Assembly: GCA_049965555.1 (NCBI GenBank) | Contig: JBMFWF010000001.1 | Location: 83,791-147,790 of the forward strand | DNA from: Candidatus Parvarchaeum sp. | GTDB lineage: Archaea; Nanobdellota; Nanobdellia; Parvarchaeales; Parvarchaeaceae | DNA length: 64,000 nucleotides | Direction of reading: 5' to 3' | Shown: one piece after another, positions 8,557-54,552 of the stretch | How the letters are laid out: each line of letters starts with the position of its first letter | How positions within the stretch are numbered: position 1 is the first letter of the stretch | Program-made: the position numbers and the translations under genes | Notes under the pieces: generated by a model | Databases searched by the model: none | The model's input: only the letters and a program-made list of their open reading frames with translations | What the model was told of the DNA's origin: nothing

Positions 8557-9534
8557 TTACTTATTGTAGTAGGAATCCCATTTTGGAGCATAAAAATCAA
8601 TTTTTGGGAAACTTACCTTAAAACCGTAACAACTGTAAACCATTATATTTTTAACATACTTCAGAAGAGACCAATTCTGCTTTTTTATTTTATTAAGGAC
8701 TATGTCTGCAGCAGAAAGAGACTCGAAAAAATGGTAAAGTTCCTCTTTCTTGAGTACCTGTGGAGCCTTTTCCGCCAACCAGATCTCGAAGTTCTTTGCT
8801 TCCATATCTGATGCAAAGTATATCTCTGTATTTTCAATTTTACCAGAAAATACTGCTGTTATTTTTTCAAATATTGAATCATCGGAATTCCTAAATGTAT
8901 CTAAACTTTTAGAATTTGTTATATATATTGTGTTAAGATCGGTTATTATACTTGCGATATTCCCCTTCGCTCCTTTTACAATACTGTCGATTAAACCCTC
9001 CTGTATTTTAAGCTTGTTGTAAATAACAAGCTTTAAGGCAAAAGCCTTCAATACTCTATTATTGAGTTTGTAAAATCTTGTAATTTCATAAGCTGAAAGA
9101 TACTTTTTATATTTGCTGCGAAATATATCGCCTGTTTCTGATTCGAAGATTATTATAGAATCGCTCGCTATTGAATTTAGCTTCTGCAGTATAGAAGGAT
9201 CGACTGACAGCAGTTTTTCAATGTCCTCGATGTAGATAACCTTCTTATTCTGCTCGAAAAGCGATTTAGAAACTGCAACTTTTTTTATGCTTTCCAGAAT
9301 TAGAGAAGATACACTCTGTGTCTCATCAACCAATTCATATAGATTTATAACCTCAAATGTGGCGTTTATTTCATTCGCAATTGCCTCTGCCAAGAAATTT
9401 TTCCCCGTTCCGGCTGGGCCATTAAATACAAACCTTGACTTTCCGTTTTTTATAGATGTTAATACCTTTCCAGAGATGCTGTTTGAGTAGTTTTCTACAA
9501 ACATTTTTATCTCTGGCTTGAACAAGGAAAGCAT
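8557..9534 (-). CDS. rfcL: replication factor C large subunit-like AAA+ protein (divergent, degenerate Walker motifs)
   Basis: Immediately downstream of rfcS (3-nt gap); FVFNGPAGTGKNFLAEAIANEINATFEVINL aligns to RFC-large LLLYGPPGVGKTSLAHALANE..VIELNASD but with GKN instead of GKT and EDIE instead of DEAD/DEVD; only 325 aa. Confidence 0.5.
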   Translation of the reverse strand: MLSLFKPEIKMFVENYSNSISGKVLTSIKNGKSRFVFNGPAGTGKNFLAEAIANEINATFEVINLYELVDETQSVSSLILESIKKVAVSKSLFEQNKKVIYIEDIEKLLSVDPSILQKLNSIASDSIIIFESETGDIFRSKYKKYLSAYEITRFYKLNNRVLKAFALKLVIYNKLKIQEGLIDSIVKGAKGNIASIITDLNTIYITNSKSLDTFRNSDDSIFEKITAVFSGKIENTEIYFASDMEAKNFEIWLAEKAPQVLKKEELYHFFESLSAADIVLNKIKKQNWSLLKYVKNIMVYSCYGFKVSFPKIDFYAPKWDSYYNK

Positions 9535-9536
9535 AT

Positions 9537-10478
9537 TTATTTAAGACTGGCCAAAAACGCAAGAAAGGCCTGAAATTGTATAAAAGGTGTTGCTCCTTCT
9601 ACTATCCTATAATCTGTCTCTGCAAGTTTCTCGAAAACGTAATTTTTTACTTTATCATTTACTATATCAGTAGTTGAGATTATGTTAAATATAGAGATTA
9701 AAAGCTCTTTCATATTTATACCACTGTCTATTATTTCCGAGAATATCTCCTTTGATTTCTTGAAATCCCCAGACAATGCAACTTTTAAACCTTCCATCGT
9801 CTTAGACACATCCATTAAACCACTACTTTGTAGAACTGCTTTAGAGTCTATCTTTTTAGAAACATTTGAAAGTGACTGCATTAGATTAACAAGGGTTCTT
9901 AAATCACCTCTAGAAACATAATCCAACGCATCCATTGCTTCCTTGTCCACTTCCAATTTCTCGCTATCGGCAATCCTTTCTATAAACTTGTGCACGTCTT
10001 CTTTTGAAAGCGGCTGAAACCTTAGAATTGCACACCTTGACTGTAAAGGCTCTATTATGTTGCTTTGGTAATTAACGCTGAATATGAATCTACAAGTCGC
10101 ACTATATTCTTCCATCATCCTACGCAGAGCCTGCTGGGCTTCCTGCGTTAAAGAATCTGCCTCATCAAAAAGAATTATCTTAAACGGTGCATCTATAGGC
10201 TTCGTCCTTGCAAATTCCTTAACTTTTCCTTGTATAACGCTTAGCTTCCTGTCGTCAGATGCATTTAACTCAATGAAATTCTGATCCCATATCTGACCAA
10301 ACACTGCTTTTGCCAATACAACTGCAGAAGTTGTTTTGCCTACTCCTGGTGGGCCAGATAAAATCATATGTTGTATCTCTTTCTTTTCAGCCATTGCCTT
10401 TAATTTTTCTACTATTTCTTTCTGCCCTATTATCTCATCAAAAGACTGCGGCCTATACTTTTCTATCCAAAGGGCCAT
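9537..10478 (-). CDS. rfcS: replication factor C small subunit
   Basis: 313 aa; EKYRPQSFDEIIGQ, Walker A SGPPGVGKTT, Walker B ILFDEADSLT, SRC motif QSRCAILRF; no intein. Confidence 0.9.
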   Translation of the reverse strand: MALWIEKYRPQSFDEIIGQKEIVEKLKAMAEKKEIQHMILSGPPGVGKTTSAVVLAKAVFGQIWDQNFIELNASDDRKLSVIQGKVKEFARTKPIDAPFKIILFDEADSLTQEAQQALRRMMEEYSATCRFIFSVNYQSNIIEPLQSRCAILRFQPLSKEDVHKFIERIADSEKLEVDKEAMDALDYVSRGDLRTLVNLMQSLSNVSKKIDSKAVLQSSGLMDVSKTMEGLKVALSGDFKKSKEIFSEIIDSGINMKELLISIFNIISTTDIVNDKVKNYVFEKLAETDYRIVEGATPFIQFQAFLAFLASLK

Positions 10479-10480
10479 AG

Positions 10481-11191
10481 TTAGATGTCTGCAAACAGCT
10501 CTGCAGATGGATATATTGTTATACCTGTGGCCTTTATATCTAAAGGAATGTATTTGGTTAAATGATCAGTAGATCTCATTTTTATTATTCTAAGTGCTCT
10601 TATAAATGAGCTTTGTCTTTCAACCATATAAAGGGCTATGACTCCATCAGATGCAAATTCCTCCACTCCAAACGCAGAAAGCTTGTTTTCACCATAAGGC
10701 ATCTCTCCTATGAAAATTGCAGTGCAATTCCTTGCCTTTATTATGCTTGAAATCTCTATTATGGCCTTCCTTATTGACATTATATCCGAGAAGAACATCT
10801 GTAAGTAGGTTATAGAATCGATTATCAAGCGCTGAGCACCCATTGCATCAAGCTCCGAAGAAATAACCTCTTTCATGGAATCGTAATCAACCAAAGGTAT
10901 AGTGACTATCTTTATTATGCCATTATCAATGTATTCCTTTAATTTTGGATCAAAAAGAGTAAACTGTGAAATTAAATCTTCCTGACTTTCTTCAAGCGTG
11001 AAATAAAGCCCTTTCTCACCTTTCTTGGCACCATCGGCTAAAAACTGCATTGAAAATGTGGTCTTACCCGCACCCGGCGTTCCTGTAAGGAAGATTACGC
11101 TATTTTTTGGAAATCCTCCTTTCAACGCTTCATCTAATCCAGGTATCCCTGTGGATTCTCTCTCGATGTCATTTTCGTTTTTCTTTTCCAT
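10481..11191 (-). CDS. KaiC-like single-domain RecA-superfamily ATPase
   Basis: 236 aa; STGIPGLDEALKGGFPKNSVIFLTGTPGAGKTTFSMQFLADG...GLYFTLEES is the canonical KaiC/KaiC-like N-terminus; stop lies 2 nt from the rfcS start. Confidence 0.75.
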   Translation of the reverse strand: MEKKNENDIERESTGIPGLDEALKGGFPKNSVIFLTGTPGAGKTTFSMQFLADGAKKGEKGLYFTLEESQEDLISQFTLFDPKLKEYIDNGIIKIVTIPLVDYDSMKEVISSELDAMGAQRLIIDSITYLQMFFSDIMSIRKAIIEISSIIKARNCTAIFIGEMPYGENKLSAFGVEEFASDGVIALYMVERQSSFIRALRIIKMRSTDHLTKYIPLDIKATGITIYPSAELFADI

Positions 11192-14013: not shown

Positions 14014-14304
14014 ATGGAAGTCAAAACTCTTGATGATAAAGACTTGAAGAAAGATGAAAGGCTTTACATAAAAGGCATTAGATTAATCGATTCAGTAAAA
14101 GTGGACTATAAAACGCAGAAGCACGTTTCTTTTTTAGTTCAAGGAGATAATGAACTACACAATGTGATGTATTTTGATGAAAAACCGCTGGATAAAAAAT
14201 GGCAGTGCGATTGCAAATGGTATACCCTTCAGGATAAACTGTGCTCGCATATAATTGCTGTAAATTTGGCAATAAAAAACGGAAAACTGAAAATGGATCA
14301 GTAA
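14014..14304 (+). CDS. SWIM zinc-finger domain protein
   Basis: 96 aa; WQCDCKWYTLQDKLCSHIIAV = CxCxnCxH SWIM signature. Confidence 0.55.
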   Translation: MEVKTLDDKDLKKDERLYIKGIRLIDSVKVDYKTQKHVSFLVQGDNELHNVMYFDEKPLDKKWQCDCKWYTLQDKLCSHIIAVNLAIKNGKLKMDQ

Positions 14305-15062: not shown

Positions 15063-15527
15063 TTATTTTAACGAACCGGTACGCAATACCTTGCATACCC
15101 AGTCTTTTGGAGCTGATGCATTCTCCACTTCTTTAAGAAGAAGATCTGCCTGTTTTTGACTTTCTAACCTGTCTAGCTCCAAGTAAATGTAACCTTCTTC
15201 TGCCTCATTGTGCCCTTTTAATACACGAATGACCGCCTCCGTTTTCTTTTTTGCATCCTCAAGCTCATTTATTGAAATTAACCTTTTAACTTCCTCTAAT
15301 AGTTTAAGTATTGCACCATGCTCTGCCTCTAAGCCCTGTATCCTAAGTTTATTCTCTTCAAATATTTCAGGAAAAAGGTATTCCTCCTCCCAAAACATAT
15401 GATTCCTAAGCGAAGAGACTATCAAAGCAAATTTATCTAAGTCAGGATTTAAACTCAACGAAAGCAGGAAATCGTTTAGATATAAATCAATCCGTTCATG
15501 ATCTTTGGTCAAAACGCTATCCAACAT
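15063..15527 (-). CDS. hemerythrin-like (HHE cation-binding) domain protein
   Basis: 154 aa; spaced H / HxxxE / H / HxxxE-like residues (DHERID, NHMFWEEE, EAEHG, GHNEAEEG). Confidence 0.4.
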   Translation of the reverse strand: MLDSVLTKDHERIDLYLNDFLLSLSLNPDLDKFALIVSSLRNHMFWEEEYLFPEIFEENKLRIQGLEAEHGAILKLLEEVKRLISINELEDAKKKTEAVIRVLKGHNEAEEGYIYLELDRLESQKQADLLLKEVENASAPKDWVCKVLRTGSLK

Positions 15528-16464: not shown

Positions 16465-17625
16465 ATGGAGAAAAATAATTGCTATAGTAATTTTAATGAA
16501 ATTTTTGAAATTTCAAAAAAGGTATTCAGAATCGCAGAAATAGGTAGCAAAGAATTTAGGACATCTGCTTTGCTATCTAAATTTTTAAAAGATAATGGGT
16601 TCCGAGTGCAGCAGCCTTATAAAAACATGAAAACTTCCTTTAGAGCGGAATACGGTAAAGGGAAACCTGCTGTCTGCTTCTTGTGCGAAGAAGATGCTTT
16701 GCCAAACGGACATTCTTGCGGGCATAATCTTATAGCCGCTTGGGCCGTTGGAAGCGCTTTAAAACTAAAAGAATGCGGGTATAAAGGAAAGATAGTAGTT
16801 ATCGGTACGCCATCTGAGGAAGGGATAGGAGAGTATTCTGGAAGTAAGGACCTGCTTGTCAAAGCTGGAGCATTCAAAGACATAGACTTTGTAATAGGGG
16901 CGCACCCAGATTCTCAGTGGAACGTCGGTTGCCAGTCACCTGCAGATTTAACAGCTGAAATTATTTTTGAAGGCAAAGCCAGCCATTTAGAAGAAGCAGA
17001 AAAAGGCGCAAACGCTCTTGATGCGCTTATTACAACTTATTTAAGCATAAGGAATGCCACTGCATCTTTCAATAAATACATGCATATTTTGGTTGGAATG
17101 TATATAAAACAAGGCGGAATTGCTTCTAATGTTGTACCTGAAAAAACTATACTTGAAATAGATATAAGAAGCACTAAAAGCAGTTACTTAATGCATGCTT
17201 ACAAACGGATAAAAAAGATAGCGGAAGGGATTGGAAAAACCTATAAAACAAAAGTGATCATAAAGCAGATAGGGCCTGTGTATGAGGAGTATAAAAATGC
17301 TCCTGCAATAGATAAAATTTTATACGAAAAATTAAAAAACCAAGGCGTAAAAGCAGCAAAGCTTTATGAACAAAAAGACAAACAGATAGGGGCAACAGAC
17401 GAAGCAAACGTCAGCAGAGTAGTTCCAACAGGCCACATTGATTTCAAAATAGCGCCTAAAGGCGTAGCTGGCCACTCTGATAAATTTAGATATTTTGCTG
17501 GAAGCAGAAAATCATTTGACCCCTTAAAAAAATCGATAATAGCAACCGTTGACGCCTGCCTAGAGATAGAGAAGAATGAAAAAGTTAAAAAAGAAATTGA
17601 AGAATCGAAAACCAAGAAAGGATAA
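16465..17625 (+). CDS. M20D-family amidohydrolase/peptidase
   Basis: 386 aa; metal-binding motif NGHSCGHNL (HACGHD-type) and GTPSEEG, typical of M20D aminoacylases/carboxypeptidases. Confidence 0.65.
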   Translation: MEKNNCYSNFNEIFEISKKVFRIAEIGSKEFRTSALLSKFLKDNGFRVQQPYKNMKTSFRAEYGKGKPAVCFLCEEDALPNGHSCGHNLIAAWAVGSALKLKECGYKGKIVVIGTPSEEGIGEYSGSKDLLVKAGAFKDIDFVIGAHPDSQWNVGCQSPADLTAEIIFEGKASHLEEAEKGANALDALITTYLSIRNATASFNKYMHILVGMYIKQGGIASNVVPEKTILEIDIRSTKSSYLMHAYKRIKKIAEGIGKTYKTKVIIKQIGPVYEEYKNAPAIDKILYEKLKNQGVKAAKLYEQKDKQIGATDEANVSRVVPTGHIDFKIAPKGVAGHSDKFRYFAGSRKSFDPLKKSIIATVDACLEIEKNEKVKKEIEESKTKKG

Positions 17626-17778
17626 TATTAGGTAAAACTTTGGCTATCAAAAAATTCTTTGTATAATCTTTTAAAGCAGATAGGTAATAGTATTGCTTCT
17701 AGTTATATGCTTATTTGGCTTAGCTATAATTATAGGATTATTAAATTAAGAAGGATATCATTATATGCTCGATAAATA

Positions 17779-17852
17779 TGCCCTCGCCAGGATTTGAACC
17801 TGGGTGCCCGGTTTAGGAAACCGGTATTCTGTCCAAGCTAAACTACGAGGGC
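17779..17852 (-). tRNA. tRNA-Arg (anticodon CCU)
   Basis: Reverse-complement folds: acceptor gccctcg/cgagggc, anticodon stem ccggt/accgg with loop ttCCTaa, T-arm ccagg-ttcaaat-cctgg; weak AT-rich D-stem. Confidence 0.8.
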
Positions 17853-17931
17853 TATTTGGAATCTAACGCTTTTTTAGCTTAAATCATTTGTTTTTAAAAC
17901 TATTAATATTATCCATTGTCATATCTTTTTA

Positions 17932-18600
17932 TTGTTTATGGCAGGTAATAATCCGTTTATAAGCATAACATACTCAGAAAATGACACTATCGTTGATAGA
18001 GTCAATGAAAGAGTAGAATTATTGATGCTTGTAAATGAAGCAATGGAAAGAGGAGGAGTAGTAGTACTTAAAGGTGCCCCGGGCATGGGCAAAAGTACTT
18101 TACTAAATGCTGTTGAAAAAGAACTGAAGAGATCAAAAAATGTAGACATAATGAAGGAGGAATTCACCCCTGCAGTTTACAATAAAATAAGAAATCTAAA
18201 TATAAATCCTACGAAAAAAATGTTGGTTGAACTTGATGATTTCAATAACATAGAAATGCTGGATAAGTTGAGCCAGCAAAGAGTAATTGATCTCTTGTAC
18301 AACCTTAGCCAAAAAATTGCAATTTTAATAGTGGAAAACAGGGAAGAAGGAATCGAGAAAGAGCTTAAAGCACAGAGCAAACAATTTAAAAAGTACCAGC
18401 TTAACGGACTTTCAAAAGAGGACATAAAGCAGATAATAATAAACAGGCTGAATTTAGTCAGGGCTACAAAATCCGATTCGTTGGAGCCTTTTACTGAAGC
18501 AGAGTATGAAAAGATATACAAGAAAGCAAGGGGAAATCCGAGGATTGCCCTGCTGATATGTTCTGCATTATACGATCAGAAAACAAACACTATAATATAA
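17932..18600 (+). CDS. Orc1/Cdc6-like AAA+ ATPase domain protein lacking the winged-helix domain
   Basis: 222 aa; NPF...R..E...L...L......GGVVVLKGAPGMGKSTLLNAV, Walker B LVELDDF, sensor region and terminal RGNPRIALLICSAL (Cdc6 GDAR..L.LL-like); ORF ends where the Cdc6 WH domain would begin. Confidence 0.5.
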   Translation: MFMAGNNPFISITYSENDTIVDRVNERVELLMLVNEAMERGGVVVLKGAPGMGKSTLLNAVEKELKRSKNVDIMKEEFTPAVYNKIRNLNINPTKKMLVELDDFNNIEMLDKLSQQRVIDLLYNLSQKIAILIVENREEGIEKELKAQSKQFKKYQLNGLSKEDIKQIIINRLNLVRATKSDSLEPFTEAEYEKIYKKARGNPRIALLICSALYDQKTNTII

Positions 18601-18618
18601 AGAGAACTTGAGAAAGGT

Positions 18619-19494
18619 ATGAAAACAAACATCAAGACAGCCTTGGTGCTCTTAAGCATATTTACAATAGTTCTTGTAGCAAGCAGCTTTTTTGCAAGCG
18701 TAAATTTAAAGTTATTTTCTGTTATTTCATTGCAGACAGGAATAAACTACAATGTAACTTCTCCTTTCTACTATCTAATCTACCTGATAATTGCGGGTTT
18801 GCTAATACCGACCGCTGTTATACTGCTTCTTGTAAAATATAAAAAATTAAGGATAATAAACATTGTAATAATACTTTTGTTTTTGTTTGTAATGTATGCA
18901 TTTTCAGATCTTTTCCTTCTTGATATATTCGTTTTCCCCTTGAATGGAAACTTAAGTTCAAGTAGCAGCTTGCTTGCCGTCTTTTCGCTTTTAGTCTATG
19001 TATTGCCAGTGGTACTTACAGTATACTATTTCAAGTATGCCGGAAAGTACGCAAAGGATGTTTTGAACGTGATTTTGTTCGTGTCCATCTCTGCCATCAT
19101 ATCTCTTTATTTAAACATAATAACTGCATTGATACTAATCGCCGTAATAAGCATTTACGATTATATTTCTGTATTCATAACAAAGCACATGCTTACGCTT
19201 GCGAAGGCCTTCTCCGGCAATTCCTTTGGGGGCATATCCCTTATGGCAAGGAAAGCAAAAAAGCAGGAAATATTCCTTGGAGGCGGAGACCTGGCTTTCC
19301 CAGCCATTCTTGCAAATGAATTTTTCCTTCATTATAATCTTTTTTCTGGGATATTTGCAGTAATAGGCGCGGTAGCAGGGCTTTCAATAATACTTTTCTT
19401 TGGCAAGAAAGGAAAAGCTTATCCTGCGATGGCAGCCATAGGGCCAATGCAGTTCGCTTTCCTCGGTCTGTATTTCCTTATAAGATTTATCTGA
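18619..19494 (+). CDS. presenilin/signal-peptide-peptidase-like intramembrane aspartyl protease (A22 family homologue)
   Basis: 291 aa, ~8-9 predicted TM helices; YD motif (SIYDYISVF) in one TM and GxGD motif (FLGGGDLAFP) in the next, followed by a PAL-like AYPAM segment. Confidence 0.55.
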   Translation: MKTNIKTALVLLSIFTIVLVASSFFASVNLKLFSVISLQTGINYNVTSPFYYLIYLIIAGLLIPTAVILLLVKYKKLRIINIVIILLFLFVMYAFSDLFLLDIFVFPLNGNLSSSSSLLAVFSLLVYVLPVVLTVYYFKYAGKYAKDVLNVILFVSISAIISLYLNIITALILIAVISIYDYISVFITKHMLTLAKAFSGNSFGGISLMARKAKKQEIFLGGGDLAFPAILANEFFLHYNLFSGIFAVIGAVAGLSIILFFGKKGKAYPAMAAIGPMQFAFLGLYFLIRFI

Positions 19495-19539
19495 TATAAC
19501 ACCGTTATATATTTAAATTGGCATTGATTTAAAGAAAAA

Positions 19540-19845
19540 ATGGAAGTCAAGGTGAAGGAAGAAGACGTCATAAAAGGCTTGAAACAGTGCTTTGACCCTG
19601 AAATACCTGCAAACATATATGATTTAGGATTGATATACAAGATAGAGATAGTTGGAACAGAAGTAAAAATAACAATGACGTTGACTTCGCCCTTCTGTCC
19701 TGTCACAGATTATTTAGTCGAGGATATAAAAGGAAAGGTAATGGATTTTTCAGGTGCTACAAAGGTAGACTTGGATATAACTTTTGATCCTCCCTGGACT
19801 AAGGATAAAATGACGGATGAGGCTAGAGCGGAATTAGGCATATGA
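19540..19845 (+). CDS. Fe-S cluster assembly MIP18/DUF59-family protein
   Basis: 101 aa; CFDPEIPANIYDLGLIY...TSPFCPV matches DUF59 (SufT/MIP18) signature. Confidence 0.75.
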   Translation: MEVKVKEEDVIKGLKQCFDPEIPANIYDLGLIYKIEIVGTEVKITMTLTSPFCPVTDYLVEDIKGKVMDFSGATKVDLDITFDPPWTKDKMTDEARAELGI

Positions 19846-19878
19846 GACTGCCTTTTTTATTTAAACAATATTTCTAAT

Positions 19879-20982
19879 TTAATCTAGGAAATTTTTATCC
19901 TTTAATTTTTCAGGCAGATAAGTCTCTGTCATAAATGATAGACCTTTTGCAGTAAATGCATCCAACTCAACTTTAGCGCCTAGCTTCTCCATCTTATCAA
20001 GTTCTTCCATCCATTTTTTGTTGTTTTTGAACCAATCATAATTTTTGATCTGCTTTATCCTGGCCATGTCAACATCTTTAAATTTGATAAGATGCCTTCT
20101 CAATCCATACTTGTCTATGTCTTCCATTGTCAATCCCATGAACTTTGCTTCAGGCAAGGAAAGCTTGTCTGAGACATGCGCTAAGGCAATTGAACCGAAT
20201 TTAATGGCAGAATAAATGTAAACTCCCCATATATCTCCATCTGTTAAAACATAAACCGGTAAATTGTGCTCCCTGCTAAGCCTTTGAAGCAGCCTTCTTA
20301 TCCCTCTTGTTGCCTGCCCCTGGCTTGCTATTATGATACAATGCAGCTTTTTCCAAGCTTTATCTTCATTAAGCCTGTCCCATATAGTCGCTTTCTCCAT
20401 GTAAATTACAAATTTAGCATCAACCTTCTTGAATATGAGGTCTTCTACATTGCTTGGGACGGCCCATCCGCCGCTTCCCATTTTGGACCAGTCTATTACA
20501 TCTCCTCTGTCCTCTATTATCACTTCTCCTGCGACTGCCCCATTTTTGTTTGCATTTATGTTCAACTGCTCTCTCGTTAAATCCGTTATCAGTTCCAAGT
20601 CTTCTATTGCCTTGTTTGTCTCTGTCTGGTCATCAACTACATCTATCTTAGTTCCAGGTATAGTTCTTCTTACTTGGTAAAAGGCTGACCTTAAGCTTGT
20701 GTGCTTGTCGCTTTTTATGAGTTCTCTGCTTACAGCCGCCATTGCCATAGTCTGTATGAATTTCCTGACATGCCCGACATTCAAAAAGTACCTTCTTGAT
20801 AAACCGCTGCCAAGTGTTATCATCCTGTTCTCTTCATCGTATTTTACATTGGAAAGGCCTCTTACTGGCAAAGTCAAGTAAGGATTCTCTCCCTTCTCTA
20901 TCTGTTGATAAACGTCTTTTCCGAGCTTCTCAAGTATGCTTAACCGCTTTTTCCGTGATTCCTCAATTTCCTTATTGTCCAT
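19879..20982 (-). CDS. top6A: DNA topoisomerase VI subunit A (Spo11 homologue)
   Basis: 367 aa; 5Y-CAP and Toprim regions; adjacent downstream of top6B. Confidence 0.9.
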   Translation of the reverse strand: MDNKEIEESRKKRLSILEKLGKDVYQQIEKGENPYLTLPVRGLSNVKYDEENRMITLGSGLSRRYFLNVGHVRKFIQTMAMAAVSRELIKSDKHTSLRSAFYQVRRTIPGTKIDVVDDQTETNKAIEDLELITDLTREQLNINANKNGAVAGEVIIEDRGDVIDWSKMGSGGWAVPSNVEDLIFKKVDAKFVIYMEKATIWDRLNEDKAWKKLHCIIIASQGQATRGIRRLLQRLSREHNLPVYVLTDGDIWGVYIYSAIKFGSIALAHVSDKLSLPEAKFMGLTMEDIDKYGLRRHLIKFKDVDMARIKQIKNYDWFKNNKKWMEELDKMEKLGAKVELDAFTAKGLSFMTETYLPEKLKDKNFLD

Positions 20983-27900: not shown

Positions 27901-28050
27901 GTTAATCAACTGTATAAAGAGTTCATAGGTGCTGAACCTGTATCTAATTCAACCCTTGTGGCGTGGATACCTTTGGATGGAAACGCATATGATGACAGCG
28001 GGAATGGAAATACAGCTTCTCTGTCTTCTGTAAACTTTTTGTATCCCTAA
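24973..28050 (+). CDS. large secreted/surface glycoprotein with two DUF2341-like repeats and a C-terminal LamG/concanavalin-like domain
   Basis: 1025 aa; N-terminal signal/anchor helix. The ~110-aa unit SIPLLITNYQNIATPNPFQQ...SWLE...YAIWWVKIPSIPA...GEAPQLSP(I/T)YGEYDDGANVF is present twice. The motif YPPNGVMP(T/S) is also present twice. The C-terminal GKVADVQMYDSTLTLNQVNQLY is LamG-like. There are dozens of N-x-S/T sequons. Confidence 0.5.
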   Translation: MNNKAQMITIFFSLFLILAIITILGIESANLNTNENINSLIQAYNLPKLEYYNFLNVISKISTINPSNATNAIFNSTIEGIYSKLFQNLNITNQGVNTSSVVISNFGQSIPLLITNYQNIATPNPFQQMINISVSSIDNYINTTSFGQNVEFVYNNNSIIPSWLESYNSKYAIWWVKIPSIPAKGTLTIYMKFASKKTNLLNNKTTGEAPQLSPIYGEYDDGANVFLSYGDFLGTAGFDGWTPYVTSGKFTPVATSNGIEMTNDTVSEGTHILPPNSLPEEPVIVEYSWNFYGGTSPTDGEILSLFGNLNSLVGPPVVTCGGGNIASSDSVMLMVEPIGMNCSGKYIPAILDSKNNAIISTINNLPSTTPQVYTEELIISSSTTAEAGVINQSSSLSNFSQVNVPITMSGSIPYAFNFPTLMVAAGTGGGYDYNYVKWVMARAYPPNGVMPTVQILNVPPNIGYIAPLTITNHQNTATPNPFQQEVVINASRYSAIEAPNLDNIEFFYPNGTIIPSWLENGSRSSENAVYWLKIGSIPANSSINAFIGFASTNLNLFNGKTVGEAPQLSPTYGEYDDGANVFIHYGGGGNTGWSQFTYVGGTWTTANGYLQQTATGGSYSGGPTALIESASYSNTGQYILGMAFNYTTEADARVGIIAVATPTTTPDTFGYRFIGQQGSNGAGFLSFLNDEVAWVVDNTYQGAVSTPYTMVITDNAGTWSGNLYSGYEESSSPLTSLSPTSYTTANAEGATSGYVGISAAYCGSTCTTANPINVMWFYMRAYPPNGVMPSTSIGDIQNIYPFEYQYSVANFTNSTSISVPGTASTGKIWNGGHAYTLTMWVKMQHAYGRCGYPCSDLFQTNQGCTSGLEQDPYNATGYQVNLLEWNSSCGTGATAEGSPYQYVPYGKWELITGIFKYNSQGNAWIASCVDTHCTNSTWTLTEPAVYSTPATILGSQQINGKVADVQMYDSTLTLNQVNQLYKEFIGAEPVSNSTLVAWIPLDGNAYDDSGNGNTASLSSVNFLYP

Positions 28051-29171
28051 TCGTTTAAGATAAAACTTGCAGTCTTTTCTCTGTTAAAAGGGATTAAGTC
28101 ATCGTAACCCTGGCCGGTTCCTAAAAACAATATCGGTTTTTTGGTAACATAAGATATTGAAAGGACAGCTCCTCCTTTTTTGTCCACGTCTGCCTTTGAA
28201 AGAATGTTTGCATCTATCCCTATTTCTTTGTTAAATACTTCAGCCTGCTTGACTACATCATTCCCTGTCAAGGCATCACCGACAAAGATTGTAAGATCTG
28301 GTTTGCTAACTCTTTTTACCTTCTTTAATTCTTCGATTAGATTTTTGTTTATATCGCTCCTTCCTGCAGTGTCAATCAATACAACGTCTTCTTTCGCTGA
28401 ATTTGCGTGTTTTATTGCATCAAATGCAACCGCTGCCGGATCAGCACCGTATGTATGCTTTATTATTGGAACGTTTAACCTATTTGCATGTATCTCCAAT
28501 TGCTCTATTGAAGCGGCACGGAATGTGTCCCCTGCGGCTATTACCGGCTTCAACCTATTTGAAAGAAAGAATTTGCATAGCTTTGCTATTGTAGTGGTCT
28601 TTCCTGCCCCATTTACCCCTATTACTAGAATTATAAAAGGTTTCTTGTTTCTTATGTCCGATAAGAACTTTTCCTTATCATATGCAATTAAAACGCCTTC
28701 TATGCTTTCCTTTATTGCATCTGAGATGTATTTTTTGTTTCCAAAAACAGAAATATTCTCACCGACCAGCTTGGCCTTTAACTCTTTTTCTATGCCTTCA
28801 AGAACTGACAATGCAACGTTGTTTTCCAGGAGAGCTGATTTTATCTCAGAGTAAATCATTTCAACGTCTTCATCTGTTATATAATGCGATAGAATAGATC
28901 TCTTTTTTACAGGCTTTTTTTGATCGATTTCTGTTTCTTTCTTTTCTTCGTGCTTAAGCTCTAAAACTTCTTTTTTTATCTCCTGGATTTCTTCCTTTAT
29001 TTCTTTTTTATCCTCAGGTAATATCTCTTTCTTAAGTTCGGATTTATCCTGTTGCAATATCTTTTCTTCCTTTTTCTCCTCCTCTAAGATATCCTTTTCC
29101 TCTTCTTTTGAAAGTTTTTTCTGTATTGAACTTATAGAATCTTTTATTTTTTTCTTTATTAAGTCAAACAT
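28047..29171 (-). CDS. ftsY: signal recognition particle receptor FtsY
   Basis: 374 aa; NG domain motifs GVNGAGKTTT, DTAGR, and charged N-terminal region. Confidence 0.9.
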   Translation of the reverse strand: MFDLIKKKIKDSISSIQKKLSKEEEKDILEEEKKEEKILQQDKSELKKEILPEDKKEIKEEIQEIKKEVLELKHEEKKETEIDQKKPVKKRSILSHYITDEDVEMIYSEIKSALLENNVALSVLEGIEKELKAKLVGENISVFGNKKYISDAIKESIEGVLIAYDKEKFLSDIRNKKPFIILVIGVNGAGKTTTIAKLCKFFLSNRLKPVIAAGDTFRAASIEQLEIHANRLNVPIIKHTYGADPAAVAFDAIKHANSAKEDVVLIDTAGRSDINKNLIEELKKVKRVSKPDLTIFVGDALTGNDVVKQAEVFNKEIGIDANILSKADVDKKGGAVLSISYVTKKPILFLGTGQGYDDLIPFNREKTASFILND

Positions 29172-53253: not shown

Positions 53254-54552
53254 TTAAGTACTTTTAAAGTCCACGCCAACATAAGAACCCTGCTTTGCAG
53301 TACCACTAGAAGGAGAAGGATTATAGGTACGCACAATATGATTTTCTGTTACACTTGATGATTGTATACTAAAACCGTAACTGCCTGGCGGTTCTGAAAA
53401 GGCTATTACATCCCCGCTTCCTGTTAAACTTATAGTTGAGCTTTTTGTATCCCCATCGTAAGTAACACTCCAACTTGCACCAAATGGCAACCCTCCTTCT
53501 ACAAAGACAGTTTCATCCATCAGAGAGCCATTTACAAGCTGTTCACTGTAAGAGTTAACAAGCTGCAGATCATTAACACCTGACTGGACTCCCAAGAAAG
53601 TAAATGATTTGCTGTATAAGCCAAGAAAAGGCCTGTTGCTTTGGTCAGCAAGGTAAAATGAGTTTCCGCCGCATAAGATGGGTTGACAGACTATGCTGCC
53701 ATTATTTATAGTGCCTTCCTTTACAAGTGTAACTAGGTTTGTGCACTGCTGTGACAAGTACGAAAAAGTTGGGTTGTAATTTGATTTTGCAGTTACATTT
53801 ACTTGAAAATTCGTTTCTAAATTGCCGGGTATACTCACAACCAATGTTATGTTGTGCACTTCCTGCTGGCACGGAGAGACTAGTGAAAGCGAATGTATGC
53901 CCGTTAAATCAGAGTAAGAACGGGAGCATGTGCTCTGGCCGTTGAAGTATGCATTTAAATTTATACTGTTGTTTGAATATTCCTGCAAATAAAATGTATA
54001 ATTCTGCGAAGCAATAACTGAAGAGGAATTAAGGATAAGAGAAAATGTAGAAGAAGAATTTACAACTATCCCCGAGGTGCTTATCTGGTTGTATAATGCT
54101 AAATCGCTCATGTTTGCTGAACCTGAAAAGGCATATTCTTTCGGAAGATAGAAATTTACATCCCCTTTGGCAGTGCTTTCTAGAAAGTACTGGTTTCCGC
54201 TGGATACGCCTAATGCAACAGGGTCACTTATATTTGCATAACAAAGATTGTAATTGCCGTCTAAGGAAGATAGAACTGCCGAATTCGGCGAGAAGATGTA
54301 TGTATTTGAGCTTAATATTGAATTGCATCCCGGCGTGTCATACATCTGAAACACAAATATTGAAGGAGAGGAGAACTGCACATTCGAAGCAGTTTGTATG
54401 GAAGTGCATGCTGAATCGGCCATGCTTACCAATGAATTGTAATAGCTTATAGATGATTTAGGAGCGAAGAATGCGGAATATTCGTACACGACAAAGAACA
54501 GTATTATCGCCATCATTATCGCTATCAATATTCCTTCTAAAAGCAAGTCCAT
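53254..54552 (-). CDS. N-terminally anchored extracellular Ser/Asn-rich glycoprotein
   Basis: 432 aa; hydrophobic N-terminus then Ser/Thr/Asn-rich beta-rich sequence with numerous N-x-S/T sequons; tandem with the following pilin-like gene. Confidence 0.4.
   Translation of the reverse strand: MDLLLEGILIAIMMAIILFFVVYEYSAFFAPKSSISYYNSLVSMADSACTSIQTASNVQFSSPSIFVFQMYDTPGCNSILSSNTYIFSPNSAVLSSLDGNYNLCYANISDPVALGVSSGNQYFLESTAKGDVNFYLPKEYAFSGSANMSDLALYNQISTSGIVVNSSSTFSLILNSSSVIASQNYTFYLQEYSNNSINLNAYFNGQSTCSRSYSDLTGIHSLSLVSPCQQEVHNITLVVSIPGNLETNFQVNVTAKSNYNPTFSYLSQQCTNLVTLVKEGTINNGSIVCQPILCGGNSFYLADQSNRPFLGLYSKSFTFLGVQSGVNDLQLVNSYSEQLVNGSLMDETVFVEGGLPFGASWSVTYDGDTKSSTISLTGSGDVIAFSEPPGSYGFSIQSSSVTENHIVRTYNPSPSSGTAKQGSYVGVDFKST

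Follow-up and report, generated by a model that had tools for sequence, protein, structure and literature searches.

Genomic pairing of a winged-helix-less P-loop NTPase with a presenilin-family intramembrane protease in Parvarchaeum and other archaea

The locus and its protease gene

We analyzed a 64,000-nucleotide stretch of a Candidatus Parvarchaeum (ARMAN-4-like) genome, from a tiny acid-mine archaeon (contig JBMFWF010000001.1, positions 83,791 to 147,790 of the forward strand; hereafter the window, in which all positions are counted). At its center of interest lie two adjacent plus-strand genes, the first encoding a P-loop NTPase and the second a presenilin/signal peptide peptidase (SPP) homologue (PSH) with the GxGD motif of intramembrane aspartyl proteases (Table 1). 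As described below, the two genes stand side by side in two deep archaeal lineages whose flanking genes differ, and the pair is the subject of this report. An initial annotation, made from the sequence of the window, had described both open reading frames (ORFs) as we find them (222 and 291 aa), with all of the quoted motifs in place; it treated the two genes as separate, and the conserved pairing was missed. The NTPase most likely starts at the ATG at 17938, which predicts a protein of 220 aa, because all homologues are 219-222 aa long and begin with M-x-x-N-N-P-F. Proteins identical to both are present in an NCBI metagenome-assembled genome, where the first is called "P-loop NTPase fold protein" and the second "presenilin family intramembrane aspartyl protease."

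Table 1. Positions of the paired genes, their motifs and surrounding elements in the window, followed by other P-loop genes
Feature	Position	Strand	Remarks
NTPase ORF as called	17932..18600	+	222 aa from TTG
NTPase gene, likely true extent	17938..18600	+	220 aa; AAA+/STAND-like P-loop NTPase, core and helical lid, no winged helix
N5-P6-F7 box of the NTPase	17950..17958	+	invariant in 38/38 family members; in the low-confidence unstructured tail of the model
Walker A, G46-A-P-G-M-G-K-S-T54	18073..18099	+	Lys replaced by Arg in 6/38 members, by Gly in 1/38
Walker B strand, L96-VELDD-101, then F-N-N	18223..18249	+	from the alignment
Lid motif G199-N-P-R202-IALL with sensor-2 Arg	18532..18555	+	G199, N200, P201 and R202 invariant or nearly so
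Intergenic spacer	18601..18618	+	18 nt; purine-rich GAGAAAGGT right before the PSH ATG, from the sequence
PSH gene	18619..19494	+	291 aa; GxGD intramembrane aspartyl protease with nine transmembrane segments (TM1 to TM9)
Catalytic Y180-D181, TM6	19156..19161	+	invariant in 24/24 and 26/26 aligned homologues
Catalytic G221-G-G-D224, start of TM7	19279..19290	+	G221, G223 and D224 invariant; aligns with GMGD of 4hyc
P269-A270-M271, variant of the PAL motif before TM9	19423..19431	+	P269 invariant, A270 in at least 90%
A/T-rich, TATA-like stretch TTTTTAAAA ... TTAATATTAT	17891..17912	+	26-47 nt 5′ of the ATG, from the sequence
FeS_assembly_P (DUF59-type) neighbor	19540..19845	+	Pfam
tRNA-Arg (anticodon CCT)	17779-17852	-	between the M20 peptidase gene and the NTPase gene
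RFC-large-like AAA gene	8557-9534	-	P-loop ORF survey
RFC small subunit gene	9537-10478	-	Rep_fac_C, DNA_pol3_delta2; Walker A
236-aa ORF, possibly KaiC/RadA-like	10481-11191	-	Walker A GTPGAGKT
FtsY gene	28047-29171		Walker A ORF

The second protein had been read as a presenilin/SPP-like protease, and profile, sequence and structure comparisons all bore this out. The Pfam SPP family (PF06550) matched at 45.9 bits (cutoff, 23.9; E = 7e-12). With phmmer, the Methanoculleus PSH of known structure (4hyc) was matched at E = 1.7e-7; each residue of YD and GxGD has its counterpart in that alignment, the catalytic Asp pair being retained. The NCBIfam PSH equivalog model (NF041679) scored 65.1 bits, under its cutoff of 125, so that by the NCBI rule the window PSH is a divergent member of the family and not an equivalog. 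In the AlphaFold (AF2) model (pLDDT 82.7) nine long helices were predicted, with YD in the helix of residues 167-188, GGGD opening the adjacent helix (222-238), as the initial annotation had placed them, and P-A-M immediately ahead of the last helix. All Foldseek matches of the model at E <= 0.001 were PSH, SPPL2a or presenilin-1 (PS1), with TM-scores of up to 0.77. Besides the catalytic residues, T188-K-H-M191 is invariant in the 24-26 homologues aligned. The third residue of the PAL motif is M, L, I or V among homologues, a conservative variation: YPAM is invariant across the Parvarchaeota set, and some PSHs of a second lineage, introduced below, have YPAL, YPAI or YPAV. Taken together, these data show that the window PSH belongs to the presenilin/SPP GxGD proteases and has intact catalytic motifs, and it is predicted to be catalytically competent.

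Three further observations concern the PSH. Proteins of the Parvarchaeum acidiphilum type carry an insertion of ~20 residues, FVFPLNGNLSSSSSLLAVFSLL, between TM3 and TM4 (residues ~100-125; window 18920-18990), which is modeled at a pLDDT of 70-74 and is found in no other Parvarchaeota PSH and in no PSH of the second lineage. The model also has a short β-hairpin at residues 205-221 (window 19231-19281), in the loop that joins TM6 to TM7, directly ahead of GGGD, with a low-confidence connecting loop (208-215); in substrate-bound γ-secretase, a β-strand forms in the TM6-TM7 loop region. Finally, one PSH orthologue (L038:4128-4958) has a stop codon in frame and diverges over one stretch ("...FQH*QILI...") beside an intact NTPase gene, and it is possibly a pseudogene, a frameshift or an assembly error.

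The A/T-rich stretch upstream of the NTPase gene is a candidate archaeal promoter for the pair. A sigma-70 promoter scan of the locus returned matches at the level of shuffled controls, the sigma-70 model not being applicable to archaea. A scan for terminator-like sites found none in the spacer between the two genes, and the sole such site after the pair (19836-19853) lies at the 3′ end of the FeS_assembly_P gene, which may be co-transcribed with the pair in the window. Another terminator-like match, at 17808-17824, lies within the tRNA-Arg and is an artifact of its stem. Beyond FeS_assembly_P, the genes for topoisomerase VI (topo VI) A/B, a KH protein and Elp3 lie on the minus strand.

A short NTPase family without a winged helix

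The AlphaFold model of the NTPase (pLDDT 88.5) consists of a five-stranded α/β core and a three-helix lid, and the protein has no TM segment. Its last helix covers residues 201-219 and the protein ends at residue 220, so that, as had been pointed out in the initial annotation, it stops where a winged helix would begin. The suggestion made there that it might be a degraded Orc1/Cdc6 paralogue did not hold. Its 75 close homologues from Parvarchaeota, ARMAN-4/5 and Acidifodinimicrobium are 219-222 aa long at identities down to 42%, and an exhaustive profile search returned ~45 clusters (at 50% identity) of 190-226-aa NTPases that match end to end, the winged helix being absent in all of these short members. 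Because this length is constant across the ~45 clusters, the NTPase represents a complete conserved family rather than a fragment or a degraded paralogue. A winged helix displaced by a frameshift, for which the annotation had likewise seen no sign, is not possible either, since only 18 nt separate the gene from the PSH start and no winged-helix-coding sequence lies downstream; a degraded or frameshifted Orc1/Cdc6 was thus rejected.

We aligned 38 members of the family. N5-P6-F7, R170-L-N172, P184-F185 (within PF[TS]E) and G199-N-P-R202 are the family-wide invariant positions. The Walker motifs vary. Besides the replacements of the Walker A Lys (Table 1), six members have Glu and one has Thr in place of the Walker B Asp. 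A further acidic residue of Walker B follows at +1 in Parvarchaeota (DDFNN) but mostly at +3 elsewhere in the family (D-x-F-[DE]-L), and the latter form, hhhhD-x-F-[DE]-L, is one that we take to be NACHT/STAND-like. Neither the glutamate of a DE Walker B nor a conserved aromatic in a pore loop following β2 was detected across this alignment.

Among the best 25 Pfam matches listed for the window NTPase, the foremost were NACHT, nSTAND3, nSTAND5, AAA_16, NB-ARC and KAP, with marginal scores for NACHT (30.0 bits; cutoff, 26.7; mainly over the P-loop) and nSTAND3 (28.7 bits; cutoff, 27.2; residues 35-173). Across the 38 members, nSTAND3 matched 33 (E < 0.01), ATPase_2 32, NACHT and AAA_22 28 each, and ORC-CDC6-like (PF24389) 5, weakly. 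The nearest longer relatives (E of 1e-12 to 1e-9) are archaeal ATPase_2/AAA_22/AAA_16 proteins of 320-440 aa, several of which end in a MarR- or BlaI-type winged helix. The profile check for Cdc6 that the initial annotation had proposed thus led to these proteins and not to Orc1/Cdc6. The NPF box is common to the longer ATPases with a winged helix-turn-helix (wHTH) domain, one of which (P0183) has an ExeA-like KPF variant. This weakened our earlier candidate reading, in which NPF would bind a partner and be peculiar to the PSH-linked NTPases; the box is probably an ancestral N-terminal element and, as a speculation, might be the counterpart of RFC box II. Among the archaeal NPF-box ATPases (ATPase_2/AAA_22/ExeA-like), which lie near Orc/Cdc6 and STAND, the NTPase is best regarded as an offshoot that has no winged helix.

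The initial annotation had credited the protein with the full Orc1/Cdc6 AAA+ signature, which stands in part. An AAA+-type module is present, and in a structure search the best neighbors of the model were Cdc6/Orc1, within a set that includes Cdc6, ORC, RFC and TnsC. However, the Walker A and B, sensor 1, sensor 2 and lid elements are generic to AAA+ and not diagnostic of Orc1/Cdc6, and no Orc1/Cdc6-specific profile was among the best 25 Pfam/NCBIfam matches listed. The NTPase profile matched Cdc6 in the PDB at an E-value of only 0.023, over the P-loop, and no winged-helix profile matched the NTPase. The RGNPRIALL segment had been singled out as part of the signature, but its RGNPRIA aligns equally well with SRGTPRIA of RuvB sensor 2. 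The initiator-specific motif is reportedly an extra helix between β2 and the Walker B strand. In the NTPase model, the 18 residues between β2 (69-75) and β3 (94-100) hold one 8-residue helix (78-85), and the model appears to leave no room for such a helical insertion before the Walker B strand.

Our survey of the window agrees with the annotation that it holds no full-length Orc1/Cdc6: its Walker A ORFs are limited to the NTPase, the possibly KaiC/RadA-like ORF, FtsY and the RFC small subunit, with an RFC-large-like AAA gene in addition, and no Orc1/Cdc6 gene was found. Likewise, no array resembling origin recognition box (ORB) repeats was present in positions 17400-19900, the 2.5-kb stretch scanned, where the only matches were of two copies, 12-28 nt long and at chance level. 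The NTPase gene was not linked to origins or replication genes in the loci examined. Elsewhere in the window, three P-loop genes lie in a row on the minus strand (8557-11191; RFC-large-like, RFC small subunit and the KaiC/RadA-like candidate), and a 432-aa ORF (53254-54552, minus strand) had no Pfam match at E <= 1e-3; this ORF is not an Orc1/Cdc6 candidate because it has no Walker A motif.

Pairing of the two genes across archaea

Parvarchaeota-type loci came from 35 GTDB species representatives, with 6 more from exact-protein look-ups. By tblastn, the NTPase gene adjoins the PSH gene in 38 of the 40 informative loci. The Acidifodinimicrobium clade (L003-L006, L035-L038) has the order swapped, PSH then NTPase, with the adjacency kept.

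The same pair was found in a second lineage, in which the NTPases share 24-30% identity and the PSHs ~30% identity with those of the window. In the locus L042, a PSH (31% identity) is preceded by a 208-aa NTPase with a 4-nt overlap, in a neighborhood unrelated to that of the window (threonyl-tRNA synthetase [ThrRS], a MiaB-like radical S-adenosylmethionine [SAM] enzyme, arginase, SepF, prefoldin and L37ae). By hhalign this NTPase is a full-length member of the family (probability, 98.9%; E = 3e-17; columns 5-215). Four more loci (L046, L047, L048 and L049) have the NTPase-then-PSH arrangement, and a metagenome scan with a non-Parvarchaeota profile added 15, with the PSH gene after the NTPase gene in all 14 that have downstream sequence. 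The NTPase gene thus lies directly 5′ of the PSH gene in 19 of 19 informative second-lineage loci, a count that is partly redundant and comes down to roughly 13 independent loci after removal of near-duplicates. In most loci the two genes are 0-20 nt apart or overlap by 4 nt; in L063, PSH sequence can be aligned from ~440 nt downstream of the NTPase. In the flanks, ThrRS, MiaB-like, SepF, prefoldin and L37ae genes replace FeS_assembly_P and topo VI, the synteny of FeS_assembly_P with the pair being confined to Parvarchaeota.

Several side observations were made in these neighborhoods. In L047 (2918-4672) the MiaB-like radical SAM gene ends 4 nt before the NTPase start, and in L042 it lies 40 nt upstream, which suggests a longer transcription unit of this gene and the pair in the two loci; its placement is not conserved in L048 or L049. 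Two loci with a PSH gene and no NTPase gene have neighbors that are probably coincidental, namely an MCM gene right upstream of the PSH gene on the same strand with a 37-nt gap (L045:1876-4831) and a rhomboid protease gene two genes downstream of it (L044:4001-6299). Genes for a weakly matching SWIM protein and a hemerythrin recur 5′ of the pair in the related loci L001 and L004; the window has a 96-aa SWIM-zinc-finger-like ORF at 14014-14304 (plus strand) and a 154-aa ORF at 15063-15527 (minus strand) that is a candidate hemerythrin counterpart.

The near-obligate adjacency of the two genes in two deep lineages with different flanks argues that their products are partners, and on balance we consider it probable that the NTPase and the PSH function together in some way, any specific mechanism being less certain than this. 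A number of points weigh against a partnership. The support for it comes entirely from genomic context. Adjacency within Parvarchaeota alone is weak evidence, because the whole neighborhood, including FeS_assembly_P and topo VI, is also syntenic there. The only two Parvarchaeota loci in which the pair is broken are L031, where a 793-aa opposite-strand gene splits it (L031:5691-8072, minus strand), and L032, which has the NTPase gene and no PSH gene in its 4.6-5-kb flanks. PSH loci of other archaea (L043, L044 and L045) have no NTPase gene, which confines the pairing to particular lineages. We found no PSH sequence feature that marks the NTPase-linked proteins: the motif GKxxKxYPA occurs also in PSHs of unknown context, and in a rough neighbor-joining tree the NTPase-linked PSHs are not cleanly monophyletic. 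Lastly, the purified PSH of Methanoculleus marisnigri (MCMJR1) is proteolytically active (PMC2947513). Since this protein is active and many PSH genes have no NTPase gene, the NTPase is not a general requirement for catalysis.

Many of these points would also be explained if the genes were mere neighbors, packed into an operon of convenience in a streamlined DPANN-type genome, with the NTPase serving an unrelated housekeeping role. Small archaeal genomes do pack unrelated genes in tight or overlapping arrays, and the equal synteny of FeS_assembly_P and topo VI within Parvarchaeota, the broken pairs in L031 and L032 and the PSH genes without an NTPase gene elsewhere all fit this explanation. 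It does not account for a pair that is kept where all other neighbors differ, that survives a swap of gene order, that often overlaps at start and stop and whose NTPase gene never stands apart from a PSH gene in the informative second-lineage loci. Uncoupled neighbors therefore seem an unlikely explanation, though the best surviving of the alternatives.

Possible joint function and comparison with known systems

If the two proteins are partners, the NTPase, presumably cytoplasmic, would work with the PSH at the cytoplasmic side of the membrane, the side to which the active site of the presenilin family opens. Most likely it would act as a nucleotide-dependent switch or regulatory subunit controlling substrate access, product release or assembly of the PSH, and an unfolding motor would be less likely. 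A switch is favored because NPF, RLN, PF[TS]E and GNPR are invariant while the Walker A Lys and the Walker B acids drift, and because a conserved pore-loop aromatic is lacking and the structural neighbors (Cdc6, ORC, RFC and TnsC) are switch-type AAA+ proteins. We tentatively propose that the NTPase is an accessory subunit of the PSH that puts its activity, gating or assembly under nucleotide control; it would be the first dedicated partner of a prokaryotic presenilin-family protease, which we regard as possible rather than probable.

In the motor alternative, the NTPase would form an AAA+ hexamer that unfolds or extracts proteins, feeding substrates to the PSH or pulling cleaved fragments out of it, as with FtsH, LonB or p97 with SPP/Derlin. 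Membrane proteolysis is often ATP-coupled (FtsH, LonB; PMC4343526), and the NTPase profile matches VCP-like and Rpt3 ATPases weakly over residues 21-170. However, besides the missing aromatic after β2, 7 of the 38 members have Arg or Gly for the Walker A Lys, the DE Walker B glutamate is absent and the best structural neighbors fall in the initiator/clamp-loader group and not in the classic unfoldase clade, which makes an unfoldase improbable. Slightly less credit still is due to the idea that the protein is a truncated Orc1/Cdc6 paralogue or a winged-helix-less initiator regulator working on Orc1/Cdc6 by AAA+-AAA+ contacts, in the manner of Hda and DnaA. The structural neighbors of the model are on its side; the constant family length and the profile results given above are not, and the role of initiator regulator raised in the initial annotation is disfavored because the NTPase and the PSH form a conserved pair. 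A minimal STAND-type or defense NTPase with the membrane protease as its effector is very improbable, since the top Pfam matches (NACHT, nSTAND3, nSTAND5 and NB-ARC), our NACHT-like reading of Walker B (hhhhDxF[DE]) and weak PADLOC matches to the P-loops of PtuA, mad8 and Avs2 face a 220-aa protein that holds only a nucleotide-binding domain and a helical lid, with no winged-helix, sensor or effector domain, PADLOC matches that are P-loop-level only for the NTPase and nil for the PSH, and a locus among core housekeeping genes with stable synteny rather than in a variable island. Membership in a defense system was rejected, no single PADLOC system being matched by both proteins.

Each protein is of a known kind with a generic public annotation, and the identity of the PSH is already annotated publicly; what would be new here is the conserved NTPase-PSH pair, as read from its genomic context. 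We found no report in the literature consulted of a GxGD protease with a dedicated, operon-encoded NTPase, and no mention of an NTPase partner or operon for archaeal PSHs, though an earlier mention in comparative studies is possible. Archaeal PSHs are active in vitro when purified and serve as a simple model of γ-secretase, and their physiological substrates are unknown (PMC2947513); a 2022 review lists their biological function as "Unknown" (PMC9263693). A conserved and often overlapping NTPase gene would offer a directly testable handle on PSH regulation, and it may point to the process that the PSH serves in very small DPANN-type cells. If the proposed role is correct, the PSH would be the first GxGD protease under nucleotide control, an independent archaeal answer to the regulation of γ-secretase by nicastrin, APH-1 and PEN-2. 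The case would also illustrate that a Cdc6-like AAA+ fold without a winged helix need not concern replication.

Among known systems, the MCMJR1 PSH (4hyc/4hyg; family A22) is the closest counterpart of the window PSH. The two share the nine TM segments, YD in TM6, GxGD in TM7, P-A-x before TM9 and TKHM after YD, in addition to the sequence match (E = 1.7e-7) and a fold probability of 1.00. They differ in sequence (~23% identity), and the window PSH has PAM instead of PAL, the ~20-residue TM3-TM4 insertion and the genomic pairing with an NTPase. For the NTPase, the NPF-box ATPase_2 (PF01637)/AAA_22/AAA_16 proteins with a MarR or Penicillinase_R wHTH (2qen, 2fna) and the ExeA/GspA-like proteins have the NPF box, the AAA+ core and the G-x-P-[RQ] lid in common with it, whereas the window NTPase ends after the lid, has no wHTH and is fixed beside a PSH. 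From Orc1/Cdc6 it differs in having no winged helix and, as modeled, no initiator-specific motif, and no Orc1/Cdc6 profile is among its listed matches. Hda, a bare AAA+ module of ~230 aa with a short N-terminal motif, is its top NCBIfam match, at 24.8 bits, far under the cutoff of 194.8; in contrast to the NTPase, Hda is bacterial, uses its motif to bind the β-clamp and is unlinked to a protease. At the level of concept, the pair resembles systems in which a cytoplasmic NTPase serves a membrane protease. In Bacillus, the ABC ATPase of EcsAB is needed for the site-2 protease (S2P) RasP, and p97 acts with SPP/Derlin in endoplasmic reticulum-associated degradation. FtsH and LonB are membrane proteases with a fused AAA+ module (PMC4343526). 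All of these share with the proposed NTPase-PSH partnership the combination of a cytoplasmic NTPase and a membrane protease, and each differs from it in protease class or ATPase clade.

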